A stretch of 64,000 nucleotides of DNA, from assembly GCA_964387845.1 (NCBI GenBank), contig CAYLXA010000002.1:160001-224000 (forward strand). Reading direction: 5' to 3'. The notes under the pieces are model-generated. The model saw nothing but the letters and a program-made list of their open reading frames with translations, did no database searches and had not been told where the DNA came from. Within the stretch, counting starts at the first letter, position 1; each line of letters opens with the position of its first letter. Shown here one piece after another: positions 45,950 through 49,404 of the stretch. The DNA comes from an uncultured bacterium (GTDB lineage Bacteria > Omnitrophota > Omnitrophia > Omnitrophales > Abzuiibacteriaceae). The translations under genes and the position numbers were made by a program.

Positions 45950-47659
45950 TTAACCTTCTGACGTTACGCGCAAAACTTCTTCCAAAGTAGTGCTTCCGCG
46001 AATAAAGGATTGTAGTGCGTTTTCAAACAAAGTTTTCATGCCTTTTTTTCGTGCAAGCACTTCAATTTCGTCGCTCGATTTTCTCTCAATAACCATTTGC
46101 TGAAACTCTTCATCCATCACAAAAATTTCCATAGTCGCGATTCTGCCTTTATATCCTGTTTGATTGCAAAAAGAACAACCTCTTCCATGATAAGGCGTGA
46201 CCCCTTTAAATTGCTTGGGGTCAATTTGAAATTGCGTAAAAACACTTTCCGGTATTTCGTAAGGCTCTTTACACTTCTCGCAAGTCTTACGCAAAAGCCG
46301 CTGCGCTGTTGCTGCCACCAATGAAGATGCGATTAAAAAAGGTTCGATGCCCATATCGGTCAAACGGGTGATGGCGGTGCAAGCCGTGTTGGTGTGCAGC
46401 GTGCTAAAAAGCAAGTGCCCTGTCAGCGCCGCCTTAACAGCGATATCAGCCGTTTCCGAATCGCGGATCTCTCCCACTAAAATGACGTCCGGGCTTTGAC
46501 GAAGCAACGACCGCAAGCCGCCCGCAAATGTAAGTCCGATGTCGGGATTGACTTGGGTTTGTGTGATGCCCTCGACCTGGTATTCGACAGGGTCTTCGAT
46601 TGTCATGATGTTGCGGTCTTTTGTGTTGATTTGATTTAATATCGAATACAGAGTTGTTGATTTCCCGCTCCCCGTCGGACCGGTCACTAAGACCATTCCG
46701 TACGGCCGCTTGATGATATCTTGAAACGTCTGGACGTTTTCTTCCAAGAAACCAAGCTGGGTCAAGCCGACCTGCAAACTGCGCTTATCCAAAATCCGGA
46801 GCACCGCCTTTTCGCCGTGGTATGTAGGCAGCAGTGAAACGCGGAAATCGATTTCACGCTCCTCGAACTTTGCCTTAAATCTGCCGTCTTGCGGCAGTCT
46901 TTTTTCTGTAATGTCGAGATCTGAAACTATTTTTAACCTGGCCAAAAGAGAAGCATACATTTGCCGCGGCGGCGAAAATGCTTCTTTCAGAACACCATCG
47001 ATTCTGTACCGGATTCGAAATTGCCGCTCATAGGGTTCAAAATGAATATCGCTCGCTCGCCGTTTAATAGCTTCCTGTAAAATCAAATTAACCATACGGA
47101 TGACCGGGGCCTCCTCGGCCATTTTCGGCATCGCGTTCTCTTCCGTTTGCTCCCTATCACGAACAACTTCGATAGAATCAACATCAATGTCTTCGTCTTG
47201 GAATAGATCCTCGATGTGGGCTGTATCCGAATAGTAAGTATCAAAAGCAGCTGATATATCTTTTTGCGTTGCGATAACGGGACGAACAATACAGCCTGTG
47301 ATTTCCTTTAAGTCGTCAACTGCGAATACGTTGGTGGGATCAGCCATGGCAACCGTTAACATGTTTGCAATTTTAGAAACTGGAATTAATTTGTGTCTAT
47401 CAGCAATCCGCTTAGGTACCAATTTAATAACTGCCGGCGATACTTTGATCAATGAAAGGTTTAAGATCGGAATATTGGATGCTTCGCTGACATAGCCTGC
47501 AATATCTTTTTCGCTAACGTAACCGTCTTCAACCAGAATTGCCGAAAAACTTTTGCCGCTTATTTTTCGCGCCTCAAGAACCCTTTTCATTTCTTGCTCA
47601 GAAATAATCTTACGCTCCCTCAAGATATCGAGAAGCCGGTTATGCCCCACGGATGTCAT
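45950..47659 (-). CDS. pilB: Type IV pilus extension ATPase PilB (GspE family)
   Basis: T2SSE_N domain, Walker A GPTGSGKSTT, Asp box, Walker B, His box, C-terminal tetra-Cys zinc motif (CEKC...CSFC). Confidence 0.85.
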   Translation of the reverse strand: MTSVGHNRLLDILRERKIISEQEMKRVLEARKISGKSFSAILVEDGYVSEKDIAGYVSEASNIPILNLSLIKVSPAVIKLVPKRIADRHKLIPVSKIANMLTVAMADPTNVFAVDDLKEITGCIVRPVIATQKDISAAFDTYYSDTAHIEDLFQDEDIDVDSIEVVRDREQTEENAMPKMAEEAPVIRMVNLILQEAIKRRASDIHFEPYERQFRIRYRIDGVLKEAFSPPRQMYASLLARLKIVSDLDITEKRLPQDGRFKAKFEEREIDFRVSLLPTYHGEKAVLRILDKRSLQVGLTQLGFLEENVQTFQDIIKRPYGMVLVTGPTGSGKSTTLYSILNQINTKDRNIMTIEDPVEYQVEGITQTQVNPDIGLTFAGGLRSLLRQSPDVILVGEIRDSETADIAVKAALTGHLLFSTLHTNTACTAITRLTDMGIEPFLIASSLVAATAQRLLRKTCEKCKEPYEIPESVFTQFQIDPKQFKGVTPYHGRGCSFCNQTGYKGRIATMEIFVMDEEFQQMVIERKSSDEIEVLARKKGMKTLFENALQSFIRGSTTLEEVLRVTSEG

Positions 47660-49404
47660 GCACTCACCAAATCGCTTTCCAGATCTTGATCGCCGGTCGT
47701 TACCCGGTAAATTTCATCAACTGCAGTCTCTCCTTCTACCACTTTCCCGACGGCGCATTCGCGCAAAGTCCGCATCCCAAATTTACGGGCAGCCTGCTTC
47801 AATTCATCGCCCGTCACCCGCTTAATAATTAATTCCTTAATTTCGGGCCGTAAGGTCAAAATTTCCGTGATCACCGTACGGCCAAAATAGCCTGTGCCGC
47901 GGCACTTGGGGCAACCTTGGGGATGGTAAAAAGTATATTTTTTCTTTGGATCTAGTTTCAACTTCTCGAGAATACTATCCTCCGGATGATAGGGCGATCG
48001 GCAGGCCATGCAAATCCGCCGGATTAAGCGTTGTGCGGAAATCATCAAAATGGAGGATGAAATTAAAAATGGCTCGATTCCCATATTGACAATTCTGACG
48101 ATTGAACTGCATGCATCGTTGGTGTGCAAAGTCGTTAGCACCAAATGGCCGGTTAGAGCTGCTTTAATAGCGATATCCATCGTGTCGGTATCGCGGATTT
48201 CGCCGATCAAAATAATGTCCGGGTCTTGCCTCAAAATTGAACGCAGAGCAGACGGAAATGTGAGCCCTATGTTCTCTTTGACATTCACTTGATTAATCCC
48301 GTCGACTTGATATTCAACAGGGTCTTCGACAGTCGTGATGTTTTTTTCGGGTGAATCAATGTACTTTAAAATGGAATAGAGCGTGGTTGTTTTTCCGCTT
48401 CCGGTCGGACCGGTAACTAAAAGCATTCCGTGCGGTTTTGTGGCGGAGCGCTTCAAGTCATCTAATTCACGGTCCGTGAACCCGAGCCGCTCAATGCTCT
48501 GTGACTGCGCTTTTTTATCCAAAATACGCAAACAGACCTTTTCGCCAAATGATGACGGCAAAATAGAGACACGGACGTCGACTTCCCTGTCTTGAACTTT
48601 GATTTTAAAGCGTCCGTCTTGAGGAATCCGGCGCTCGGCAATATTCAACTGGCTCATCACCTTGAAGCGCGATACCAGAGCAAGGCCCATCGCTTTCGGC
48701 GGCGCCTTGCCTTCTTCTAAAATGCCGTCCACGCGAAAGCGGATGCGGATATGATTTTCCCACGGTTCAATAAACAAATCGCTTGCTTTTCGCTTGATCG
48801 CATCCAGCAGCATCAGATTTGCGACTTTGATGACAGGAGTTTCCTGAGCCTGCCGCATCAAATCGAGATCGGCTTGGTCGCCTTCTTCTTTTGAATCCTG
48901 GACGATCCGAATCAGCTCCTCGATGGTCTCTTCTTTTGCGGGGACCTGAGGGCCTTCATCCTTTTTATCTTTCGGATAGTAGTAATCAATTGCTTTTTGC
49001 AAATCTGTAAATGGGGCAATAACGGCTTTCACGCGCAAATTGGTGCGTGCCCGTAAATCATCCAGCAGCATCACATCGGTGGGATTCCGCATCGCGATCG
49101 TCAGGACATCATCGTGTTTCGACACCGGCAACACGCCCAACTTTCGTGCGAGCTGAGCCGGGATAACACGCAAAACGTCATTATCGATTTTAAAATCACC
49201 TAAGTGAATCGGAACAAATCCGAACTCTCCGCTTAAGAATAAAACCAAATCACGATCGCTGATGAACTGCCGGCTCACCAAAATTTCACTCATTGATTTA
49301 CCGGTACTGTGAGCTTCATCAACCACGATTGCCTTTGCAGAAGCTGTAATCTTCTTCTGCTTCACCATTTTATCCAATAGGGCTTCGTTGACGATGTCGT
49401 ACAT
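47656..49404 (-). CDS. Second GspE/PilB-family secretion ATPase (tandem paralog)
   Basis: Same architecture: T2SSE_N, GPTGSGKTTT, tetra-Cys CMAC...CPKC; 4-nt overlap with pilB. Confidence 0.85.
   Translation of the reverse strand: MYDIVNEALLDKMVKQKKITASAKAIVVDEAHSTGKSMSEILVSRQFISDRDLVLFLSGEFGFVPIHLGDFKIDNDVLRVIPAQLARKLGVLPVSKHDDVLTIAMRNPTDVMLLDDLRARTNLRVKAVIAPFTDLQKAIDYYYPKDKKDEGPQVPAKEETIEELIRIVQDSKEEGDQADLDLMRQAQETPVIKVANLMLLDAIKRKASDLFIEPWENHIRIRFRVDGILEEGKAPPKAMGLALVSRFKVMSQLNIAERRIPQDGRFKIKVQDREVDVRVSILPSSFGEKVCLRILDKKAQSQSIERLGFTDRELDDLKRSATKPHGMLLVTGPTGSGKTTTLYSILKYIDSPEKNITTVEDPVEYQVDGINQVNVKENIGLTFPSALRSILRQDPDIILIGEIRDTDTMDIAIKAALTGHLVLTTLHTNDACSSIVRIVNMGIEPFLISSSILMISAQRLIRRICMACRSPYHPEDSILEKLKLDPKKKYTFYHPQGCPKCRGTGYFGRTVITEILTLRPEIKELIIKRVTGDELKQAARKFGMRTLRECAVGKVVEGETAVDEIYRVTTGDQDLESDLVSA

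Follow-up and report, generated by a model that had tools for sequence, protein, structure and literature searches.

Two tandem PilB-type ATPases, a single PilC and a stand-alone MshEN protein in a type IVa pilus locus of Omnitrophota

A type IVa pilus locus of a Candidatus Omnitrophota bacterium was found to encode two adjacent full-length ATPases of PilB type, here called A1 and A2, which precede a single PilC platform gene and follow a gene for a small stand-alone MshEN protein. With a probability of roughly 0.5, we read A1 and A2 as two non-redundant extension motors that serve one PilC platform and receive their c-di-GMP input in trans. The use of two extension motors on one type IVa pilus has a precedent (PMC8213720, PMC11656802). 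Omnitrophota are ultra-small, uncultured and probably predatory or parasitic bacteria, in which type IVa pili have been proposed to be central to host contact (PMC10066038). The cited literature on Omnitrophota reports pilus clusters and leaves their motors undiscussed.

The pilus locus

The genes of the cluster all lie on the minus strand of the 64-kb window, that is, the whole stretch of DNA analysed (64,000 nucleotides). The stand-alone MshEN protein, which resembles the N1 domain of PilB (49450..49890; 146 aa; Pfam MshEN, 74.6 bits), has a GGAGGGG Shine-Dalgarno sequence 5' of its gene. It is followed by the divergent PilB paralogue A1 (47656..49404; 582 aa) and by A2 (45950..47659; 569 aa), the paralogue nearer to canonical PilB, both with Pfam MshEN and T2SSE domains. 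The two tandem genes with products of 569 and 582 aa described in the first-pass annotation were thus found as reported, and so were the overlap of 4 nt, an ATGA shared by the A1 stop and the A2 start, and the single pilC. From this overlap, A2 is taken to be translationally coupled to A1. The pilC gene (44702..45928; 408 aa; Pfam T2SSF twice; PilC models as best NCBIfam matches) lies directly 3' of A2 and encodes the only PilC in the window.

Further along the strand are a PilS-type sensor histidine kinase (43444..44685; 6TM_PilS, HisKA and HATPase_c), a PilR-type sigma-54 response regulator (42077..43447; Response_reg, Sigma54_activat and HTH_8) and a type IV pilin with the N-terminal sequence KGFTLVEIMIVVAIIGLLAAIAIP (41418..41885; identified by N_methyl and its translation). 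The pilMNOPQ block (35074..39401) consists of pilM (38307-39401; Pfam PilM_2), pilO (37072-37698; Pfam PilO), the secretin gene pilQ (35074-36699; Secretin/Secretin_N/STN) and two genes without a significant Pfam match that are assigned by position alone, in the pilN position (37708-38310) and the pilP position (36722-37075). This pilin-system context of A1 and A2 (pilC, pilMNOPQ and type IV pilin) is that expected of PilB. The remaining open reading frames checked in the window with Pfam were housekeeping genes only, and neither PilD nor minor pilins were found among them.

Family and catalytic residues of the two ATPases

Both proteins have the architecture of PilB, an N1 domain (Pfam MshEN, formerly named T2SSE_N), an N2 domain and a C-terminal ATPase domain in about 560-580 aa. 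The PilB model TIGR02538 was the top NCBIfam model for both, with 625.0 bits for A1 and 665.4 bits for A2, both below the equivalog cutoff of 675.65 bits, which is an annotation threshold and no biological feature. The best matches in the PDB were the PilBs of Geobacter and Myxococcus, aligned over the full length, and Geobacter PilB matched A2 with 569 bits and A1 with 495 bits. Other families were tried, and GspE, PilT/PilU and TfpB were rejected. The GspE model (TIGR02533) gave 591.1 bits for A1 and 611.1 bits for A2, below both its cutoff of 630.25 and their own PilB scores. The PilT/PilU model (TIGR01420) gave 181.6 and 197.4 bits against a cutoff of 319.1, and the N1 domain and the tetracysteine are present in both proteins. 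For TfpB (NF053534) the scores were 452.1 and 470.7 bits against a cutoff of 850, and for MshE the canonical c-di-GMP motif passing NF053729 is missing from the N-terminus of A1 and of A2. No T2SS (gsp) or Msh genes accompany the pair in the locus. In comparison with the PilB, GspE, PilT and TfpB references, both A1 and A2 are therefore classed by sequence as PilB-type, unlike GspE, PilT and TfpB.

The N-terminal domain, Walker A and B motifs, Asp and His boxes and tetracysteine attributed to both proteins at first reading were confirmed by Pfam and by their positions: Walker A at 332-339 in A1 (GPTGSGKT) and 327-334 in A2 (GPTGSGKS), the Asp box at 358-364 and 353-359, the atypical Walker B with the catalytic Glu at 395-405 and 390-400, the His box at 417-427 and 412-422, and CxxC...CxxC at 465/468/498/501 and 460/463/495/498, respectively. 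The functional residues R271, R286, E357, E395, T411, H413 and H420 have been defined in G. metallireducens PilB (PMC5424180), and the equivalents of all of them are kept in both A1 and A2. The catalytic residues are also kept in the clade consensus of 116 and 119 homologues, and in the tree set the catalytic motifs and the two arginine fingers are present in all A1-type sequences (23/23 core and 10/10 basal) and all A2-type sequences (31/31). The first His of the His box is replaced in 8 of the 31 A2-type sequences, A2 of the window not being one of them. The zinc tetracysteine is invariant in all PilB-type sequences and occurs in none of 19 PilT-like sequences. With every residue for binding and hydrolysing ATP and for communication between subunits in place, A1 and A2 are both apparently active ATPases, and a pseudo-ATPase, the outcome named beforehand as counting against two motors, was looked for and rejected.

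A1 carries ASDLF in its N2 domain where the usual motif is ASDIH, and the otherwise universal His at this place is replaced throughout the A1-type proteins. The replacement hints that A1 may differ in behaviour from an ordinary PilB. A literature search on the ASDIH/ASDLH motif yielded nothing relevant. We considered the Asp of this motif as the counterpart of PilT D31/D32 and rejected it: counted along the sequence, D31 of Pseudomonas aeruginosa PilT presumably falls in the RxDG motif, and a structural role for the replaced His can therefore not be claimed. D31/D32 is a closed-interface residue in PilT (PMC6858323).

Age of the paralogues and conservation of the module

From end to end, A1 and A2 share 44% identity (E=1e-177), and 235 homologues fall cleanly into two clusters. 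The phylogeny was distance-based (neighbour joining with bootstrap), with few named references, none of them a full-length MshE. In this tree the first-of-tandem genes are monophyletic (80% bootstrap), as are the second-of-tandem genes (89%). The two groups do not join in one clade (17%) and lie within the PilBs of PVC and Hydrogenedentota. E. coli GspE and HofB fall outside the PilB radiation that includes A1 and A2, and the PilT-like sequences stand apart in a clade of their own (100%). The first-pass annotation had called for a phylogeny against PilB, MshE, GspE and other clades; the placement against PilB and GspE was obtained. Its suggestion of a PilB combined with an MshE- or T2SS-like motor found no support, since the PilB model and PilB structures match both proteins best, their PilB radiation in the tree leaves out E. 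coli GspE and HofB, and T2SS and Msh genes are missing from the locus.

Because of the 44% identity, the two separately monophyletic clades and the sharing of the pair with Planctomycetia, the duplication is dated by sequence as ancient, and the recent duplication held out earlier as the other refuting outcome was discarded. The identities of A1/A2 to the orthologues of the window proteins were 86.9/87.2, 66.7/68.1, 61.2/63.9, 56.5/56.4 and 53.6/53.9%. Judged by these identities, the two proteins have equal evolutionary rates and are under equal constraint.

The gene order MshEN-only, A1, A2, pilC was found in at least 20 loci, from Omnitrophota and three Planctomycetia. It was present in at least 13 GTDB loci among the matches listed and in all 6 of the other contigs examined, and the match lists of A1 and A2 have at least 27 contigs in common. 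In the pattern scan of GTDB contigs the relatives among the matches listed were at most 54% identical, and the closer contexts were recovered separately. A single pilC follows A1 and A2 in 18 loci, those in which the sequence reaches that far. Of 13 loci compared, 5 show the ATGA overlap again and 6 others have gaps of 1-5 nt. In none of the loci examined was a further platform protein or a set of pseudopilins seen beside A1 and A2. Judged by gene order, the three genes have been passed on together as one module across Omnitrophota, and this module is also present in some Planctomycetia.

The stand-alone MshEN protein

The MshEN motif has been defined as RLGxxL(L/V/I)xxG...LxxxLxxQ, in two motifs of 24 residues (PMC12943098, PMC5013675). 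The 146-aa protein has two such 24-residue motifs, RLGEILIEHGTIDAAQLQKALTKQ (R3-Q26) and RIGQILIEMGIVTEEDIVVALATQ (R33-Q56), separated by a linker of 6 residues, the canonical length being 5. It scores 64.7 bits with the c-di-GMP_motif model NF053729 (cutoff 38), which was also passed by all 16 MshEN-only orthologues tested (E<=1e-9), and it aligns with the N-terminus of Geobacter PilB (86 bits), with Thermus PilF and with the MshEN domain of Vibrio cholerae (5htl). The protein is predicted to be a c-di-GMP receptor. The published relaxed motif pattern matches its second motif and misses the first, and the motif calls rest on NF053729 and a local HMM, regular-expression scans being too brittle.

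With NF053729, A1 gave no match and A2 gave 35.9 bits, under the cutoff of 38. The local HMM gave 10.5 bits for A1 and 32.1 bits for A2, with medians of 8.9 for the A1 clade, 18.7 for the A2 clade and 41.5 for the other PilBs of the fetched loci. The earlier suggestion that the two ATPases have different regulatory inputs fits these data and can be made more precise: the 146-aa protein carries the canonical motif, A1 has lost it, and A2 stays under the threshold. A general rule that all tandem ATPases are without the c-di-GMP motif was rejected with both models, as the first ATPase of the basal loci (L003, L004, L011, L012 and L019) keeps a good motif beside an MshEN-only gene. A transfer of the sensor to a protein acting in trans is thus not the whole story.

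Discussion

If A1 and A2 are two extension motors, both would act on the same PilC/PilM platform with a division of labour, for example with one motor priming and the other being processive, or with the signal state deciding which of them is preferred. The c-di-GMP input would come in trans from the small MshEN protein, in the place of the own N-terminal domain that single-copy PilBs use, and this protein could dock on the N1 domains of A1 and A2, which are degenerate, or compete with them. The contacts of A1 and A2 with PilC, and of the MshEN protein with the motors, are proposals that we infer from the sequence. Should the pilus retract, the most likely motor is a PilT whose gene lies elsewhere in the genome.

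The two-motor reading is modelled on PilB and TfpB of Acinetobacter baylyi, two full-length, catalytically competent PilB-family ATPases in one type IVa pilus with one PilC (Ellison et al. 2021, PMC8213720), which have non-redundant roles (PMC8213720). In contrast to that system, neither A1 nor A2 is a TfpB orthologue by NF053534, the Omnitrophota genes are adjacent, coupled and preceded by a separate MshEN protein, and their duplication is independent, inside the PVC-type PilB clade. A. baylyi possesses PilT/PilU and the inhibitor CpiA in addition. The resemblance thus appears to be functional and conceptual only and not one of ancestry.

In Geobacter and Myxococcus we take the locus order to be pilB-pilT-pilC-pilS-pilR-pilA, with pilT between pilB and pilC. 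The PilBs of G. metallireducens and M. xanthus (5tsg, 3jc8) share with A1 and A2 their standing as best match, the domain order and the catalytic residues, and the downstream order pilC-pilS-pilR-pilin is also alike. The Omnitrophota locus differs in having an extra PilB paralogue 5' of the canonical-type copy and in missing pilT, and the single-copy Geobacter and Myxococcus PilB has its own N-terminal c-di-GMP-binding MshEN motif whereas in the Omnitrophota locus the intact motif is on a separate gene. V. cholerae MshE (5htl; Wang et al. 2016, PMC5013675) has the same two 24-residue motifs as the 146-aa protein, but carries them in a domain that is joined to its ATPase part, while in the Omnitrophota locus the domain is free-standing, A1 and A2 have degenerate N-domains of their own and there are no msh genes. 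The PilB-PilZ-FimX system of Xanthomonas and Pseudomonas (PMC8389850, PMC11656802) is similar in that a motor without its own c-di-GMP site is signalled to by a separate partner, although PilZ and the FimX EAL domain are unrelated to the free MshEN and a single PilB is regulated there.

The alternative that survives best is that A1 and A2 build one hetero-hexameric PilB ring, a single motor with two obligate subunits, which we consider unlikely and yet far from negligible. The two genes always occur together and in fixed order in the at least 20 loci, ATGA coupling or gaps of a few nucleotides are kept across loci, and the evolutionary rates are indistinguishable; the tight coupling and equal rates suit two separate homohexamers no better than an obligate hetero-oligomer. 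The clade-wide replacement of the N2-domain His in A1 could mean an altered subunit interface, and PilB-TfpB hetero-oligomers have been raised as an open possibility (PMC11656802). However, a hetero-hexameric ATPase of the PilT/VirB11 family is not described in the cited pilus literature, and both active sites are complete with their arginine fingers, while many obligate hetero-oligomers degrade one site. More broadly, the module might represent a new PilB assembly, either the mixed ring or a system with one ATPase retracting in PilT-less lineages, a proposal that we hold only tentatively and as rather unlikely. The free MshEN would here be a detachable, c-di-GMP-controlled N1 domain choosing the ATPase that engages PilM/PilC, and the change would show in the structure as the clade-wide loss of the N2-domain His in A1.

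It seems quite improbable that one of the two paralogues, the divergent A1 being the likelier, has turned into a retraction or bidirectional motor and replaces PilT in Omnitrophota lineages without PilT. A search with both ATPases (tblastn) found no further PilT/VirB11-family gene in the 64 kb other than the N-domain-only gene at 49450..49890, and over 10 kb on either side of the module none of the Omnitrophota loci examined showed a PilT-like gene; in addition, A1 has its unusual clade-specific substitutions and bifunctional motors are known in Tad pili (CpaF; PMC11656802). Against this, A1 keeps the N1 domain and the zinc tetracysteine and scores far below the PilT cutoff (181.6 vs 319.1 bits). 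A bona fide pilT-like gene lies directly 5' of the three-gene module in two Planctomycetia loci (L006 and L012), where the A1/A2 pair therefore co-exists with PilT, and K02669 (pilT) is listed for two published Omnitrophota genomes (source data of PMC10066038). The absence of PilT noted at first reading stands for the window and allows no conclusion on the genome: PilD and minor pilins are missing from the window too, so the pilus genes are dispersed across the genome, and related loci and genomes carry pilT.

Very doubtful is a split between two machines, with one ATPase for the local pilus and the other for a T2SS-like, Msh-like or other filament encoded elsewhere. Many bacteria do use several PilB/GspE homologues for separate machines (PMC11656802), and Tad clusters, besides further ones for secretion or pili, are likewise encoded in Omnitrophota (PMC10066038), but A1 and A2 are coupled genes before a single pilC in the 18 loci, in a layout kept across two phyla, neither is nearer to GspE than to PilB, and no locus has a second platform protein or pseudopilin set. 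A recent redundant duplication or a decaying pseudo-ATPase, for which the tandem arrangement alone would speak, is hardly credible given two deep clades that each contain Omnitrophota and Planctomycetia, at 44% identity, and catalytic residues kept in both sets of homologues (116 and 119) at equal, constrained rates.

The long-kept three-gene module with its equally constrained ATPases suggests that the arrangement of one machine with two extension ATPases is no mere oddity of Acinetobacter, and it appears to be a recurrent solution that has been independently invented. The module is a natural experiment on why there are two extension motors and whether motors mix, and, because the domain exists here as a separate protein, also on what the N1 domain of PilB and the c-di-GMP site in it do, all of which have been named as open questions (PMC11656802).

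As for the rest of the cluster, a gene for a TPR protein (39547..41337, minus strand; 596 aa) is conserved 3' of the pilin gene, and its position is also filled in four other loci (L083, L084, L085 and L088). A scan for sigma-54 promoters 5' of the pilin gene turned up a single weak site, no better than chance, and the sigma-70 and terminator scans stayed at background level with the exception of a 13-bp terminator-like hairpin at 41350-41383, 3' of the pilin gene.

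Results and discussion

The minus strand of the window carries a complete type IVa pilus cluster, which begins in transcription order with a gene for a 146-aa MshEN-only protein (49450-49890) and continues with two ATPase genes, A1 (47656-49404, 582 aa) and A2 (45950-47659, 569 aa), both with MshEN and T2SSE domains in Pfam, and with pilC as the single platform gene (44702-45928). The MshEN-only gene, A1 and A2 are here called the module. PilC is followed on the same strand by pilS (43444-44685), pilR (42077-43447), one pilin gene (41418-41885) with a strong 13-bp hairpin directly 3' of it (41350-41383), a TPR protein gene 3' of the pilin gene (39547-41337), and pilM, an N-position gene, pilO, a P-position gene and pilQ in that order (35074-39401). 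The A1 and A2 genes share a 4-nt ATGA overlap, and their products are 44% identical end to end. Walker A, the Asp box, an atypical Walker B with the catalytic Glu, the His box, the Arg cluster and the CxxC...CxxC zinc motif are present in both, and the first-pass annotation, which described two full-length tandem ATPases with Walker A/B, Asp and His boxes and the zinc motif, a 4-nt overlap and one pilC, proved correct in every detail in ORFs, Pfam domains and motif positions.

Both ATPases resemble PilB most. The top NCBIfam model for each is PilB (TIGR02538; 625.0 bits for A1 and 665.4 for A2, both below the cutoff of 675.65), followed by GspE (591 and 611 bits; cutoff 630), and among solved structures the PilBs of Geobacter and Myxococcus are the best match of both, more strongly for A2 than for A1 (569 vs 495 bits). 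Identity with TfpB, the second extension ATPase of Acinetobacter, was rejected (A1 452 and A2 471 bits vs a cutoff of 850), as was identity with PilT (182 and 197 bits vs 319). In the Geobacter PilB, residues R271, R286, E357, E395, T411, H413 and H420 serve catalysis and inter-subunit coupling (McCallum et al., PMC5424180). All seven are found in A1 and A2. Both families keep them as well, except that 8 of 31 A2-type sequences, A2 of the window not among them, have another residue in place of the first His of the His box. It had been considered earlier that one copy might lack catalytic residues; these were found in both copies when the two families were checked, and a pseudo-ATPase status of A1 or A2 can thus be excluded on sequence grounds.

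One position of the N2 domain sets the A1 family apart. Window A1 has ASDLF (residues 207-211; 48772-48786) where ASD(I/L)H is near-universal: the His is present in 31/31 A2-type sequences, 73/73 other PilBs, E. coli GspE and HofB, and 18/19 PilT-like proteins. Its place is taken by Phe in all 23 core A1 sequences and by Leu or Phe in all ten basal ones, which makes 33 A1-type sequences without the His; every other PilB or GspE examined retains it. The replacement is a synapomorphy of the A1 family, and no other universally conserved position has been lost in A1. No role for this His was described in the literature searched.

The 146-aa protein corresponds to the N1 domain of PilB as a protein of its own. 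Its full length can be aligned to the N-terminus of Geobacter PilB (86 bits), to that of Thermus PilF and to the V. cholerae MshEN domain (5htl). Its two c-di-GMP motifs, RLGEILIEHGTIDAAQLQKALTKQ and RIGQILIEMGIVTEEDIVVALATQ, are of textbook form as defined in PMC5013675 and PMC12943098, and it scores 64.7 bits on the NCBIfam motif model NF053729 (cutoff 38), which all 16 orthologues examined pass at E<=1e-9. On the same model A1 gives no match and A2 is just below the cutoff (35.9 bits). When the motif was scored with a local HMM, the median was 8.9 bits in the A1 core clade (window A1 10.5), 18.7 bits in the A2 clade (window A2 32.1) and 41.5 bits in the other PilBs of the fetched loci. The tandem ATPases have not lost the motif everywhere; among the module loci, the first ATPase of the more basal ones (L003, L004, L011, L012 and L019) still reaches 38-60 bits. 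Two loci (L028, 8593-9825; L054, 2569-3831) have an A1-type ATPase of 410-420 aa which has no N1 domain and whose gene follows immediately on the MshEN-only gene, an arrangement that looks like a split PilB. An exhaustive HMMER search of 1.84 billion cluster representatives showed that free MshEN proteins of similar length to the 146-aa protein are not rare: among the best 150 matches, 34 had a single domain and 114-198 aa, and the others were multi-MshEN or fused proteins. In two Omnitrophota loci a second MshEN-only gene lies between the A2-type ATPase and pilC (L014, 13835-14290; L015, 13367-13798), and both copies pass the motif model. The single-copy pilB of Verrucomicrobiota is preceded in L008, L009, L010, L020, L023, L024 and L032 by an ORF of 280-330 aa that weakly resembles the N-terminal (MshEN) part of the ATPases and ends shortly before position 10001 or before the match.

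Full-length homologues were retrieved with A1 and with A2, and these 235 sequences separate cleanly into two clusters, with identity of about 57-58% within and 42% between them. The top database matches are 100% identical proteins, all encoded on one contig of 275,583 bp. Named relatives in the database matches are almost all 'Candidatus Omnitrophica/Omnitrophota bacterium', and at least 27 contigs of at least 10 kb are common to both match lists, adjacent locus tags A3G33_07300 and A3G33_07295 among them. The module was found in at least 13 loci (13 of the 80 GTDB loci fetched with the A1 profile, among the matches listed), belonging to Omnitrophota-labelled or unclassified MAGs (L001-L005, L014, L015, L019, L028, L054) and to Planctomycetia/Planctomycetales (L006, L011, L012). 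The full order of MshEN-only gene, A1-type, A2-type and pilC is present in ten of the 13; in L002, L003 and L005 the contig ends before pilC. It was also present in 6/6 further contigs picked from the match lists (L083-L088; 53-87% identity). These share the upstream order MiaB-like, PgsA, PgpA, CinA, LigT, module (LigT is missing in L088), a block which in the window lies directly upstream of the module (50561-54179, minus strand), and this synteny suggests that the region as a whole has been inherited vertically. Ortholog identities for A1/A2 were 86.9/87.2, 66.7/68.1, 61.2/63.9, 56.5/56.4 and 53.6/53.9%; the two diverge at equal rates, with PilC slightly slower and the MshEN-only protein faster, and at the A1-A2 junction of the compared loci the two genes as a rule overlap by ATGA or stand a few nt apart. 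The pair is thus part of a three-gene motor module conserved across Omnitrophota and some Planctomycetia and not a local oddity. No description of the tandem pair was found in the literature searched.

A phylogeny against PilB and GspE, as proposed in the first-pass annotation, was run as a neighbour-joining tree (384 core columns, 158 sequences, 200 bootstraps). First-of-tandem (80%) and second-of-tandem (89%) sequences were each monophyletic, and the A1 and A2 clades were jointly not (17%). The smallest clade holding both takes in single-copy PilBs of Verrucomicrobiota, Planctomycetota and Hydrogenedentota, with E. coli GspE and HofB outside it and PilT-like proteins as the outgroup (100%). 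With two supported clades nested among PilBs, the duplication is old and lies inside a PilB radiation; a recent tandem duplication, which had been named earlier as an objection, is excluded by the two old clades and their equal divergence. Either the duplication preceded the split of Omnitrophota and Planctomycetia or the module would have moved as a unit between them. Another dual-motor layout, pilB, pilT, pilB', pilC, occurs in Verrucomicrobiota, Planctomycetota and Hydrogenedentota (L010, 16679-21165, minus strand; L063, 6738-12905; L066, 7830-13916; L068, 8091-14005), and its two PilBs form their own clades apart from A1 and A2.

The claim of the first-pass annotation that the locus has no PilT held for the window, where tblastn of the whole 64 kb with A1 and A2 revealed the N-domain-only gene as the sole extra family member, and none of the Omnitrophota loci examined has a PilT within 10 kb on either side of the module. 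It does not carry over to the genome. A prepilin peptidase and a minor pilin are also missing among the window ORFs checked, so the genes of the pilus are scattered over the genome. Two loci of Planctomycetia (L006, 3799-4878; L012, 8876-9982) have a gene for a PilT-like protein of 359-368 aa immediately 5' of the module, next to its MshEN-only gene, and the source data of Seymour et al. (PMC10066038), who report type-4a pili in nearly all Omnitrophota and never mention PilB or PilT, list K02669 (pilT) together with pilB, pilC, pilD and pilM in two Omnitrophota genomes. For these reasons the missing PilT says little about the genome.

Judged from the sequences, two PilB paralogues are intact, equally constrained and co-translated beside one platform gene, and a free N1 domain keeps intact c-di-GMP motifs, with degenerate motifs on the ATPases of the window's lineage. 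On the most likely reading, A1 and A2 would share one PilC/PilM platform and drive extension without being redundant, for which A. baylyi offers a precedent, and that c-di-GMP input would be delivered to them in trans by the MshEN protein. In A. baylyi, normal piliation requires PilB as well as TfpB; the two are phylogenetically distinct and not interchangeable, and a division between initiation and processive extension has been proposed (PMC8213720, PMC11656802). The likeness to A1 and A2 is functional only, because neither reaches the cutoff of the TfpB model. As the main rival reading, A1 and A2 could form one mixed ring; the A1-A2 coupling, the fixed gene order and the equal rates fit this at least as well as two motors, and the His replacement in A1 might reflect it. 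That one paralogue is a retraction motor, or that one ATPase serves a second, unlinked machine, is less likely than a mixed ring. A motor that is mixed or has switched its role, combined with an N1 domain that can detach and senses c-di-GMP, seems rather unlikely to us. Dual extension motors and c-di-GMP control of PilB are known elsewhere; what is new here is the variation, in a lineage without an experimental system.

Some observations concern the rest of the window. The TPR protein has a Wzy_C_2 match below threshold, and in two relatives it is followed by, or fused to, a PMT_2 glycosyltransferase-like protein (L084, 19405-21740; L085, 18535-21728), a pairing that may function in pilin modification. 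One weak sigma-54 candidate, TGGCATGGAAGTTGA (41928-41942, minus strand), precedes the pilin start by 43 nt, and matches to the pattern occur in the window at chance level. The remaining ORFs checked by Pfam were housekeeping only (RecA, AlaRS, His and Trp biosynthesis, DnaK, a MoxR/Bat operon, RNase G, CCA-adding enzyme, MiaB-like, PgsA, PgpA, CinA, LigT, PFK and biotin carboxylase). The MoxR/Bat genes (20167-26896, plus strand) form an aerotolerance-like operon of MoxR, DUF58, BatA/BatB-type VWA, TPR and BatD, and a histidine kinase with a sigma-54 response regulator (15442-18021, plus strand) makes a second such pair besides PilS/PilR. Two neighbouring minus-strand genes (62266-63000 and 63211-63969) each combine STAS and PilZ domains and are candidate c-di-GMP effectors.
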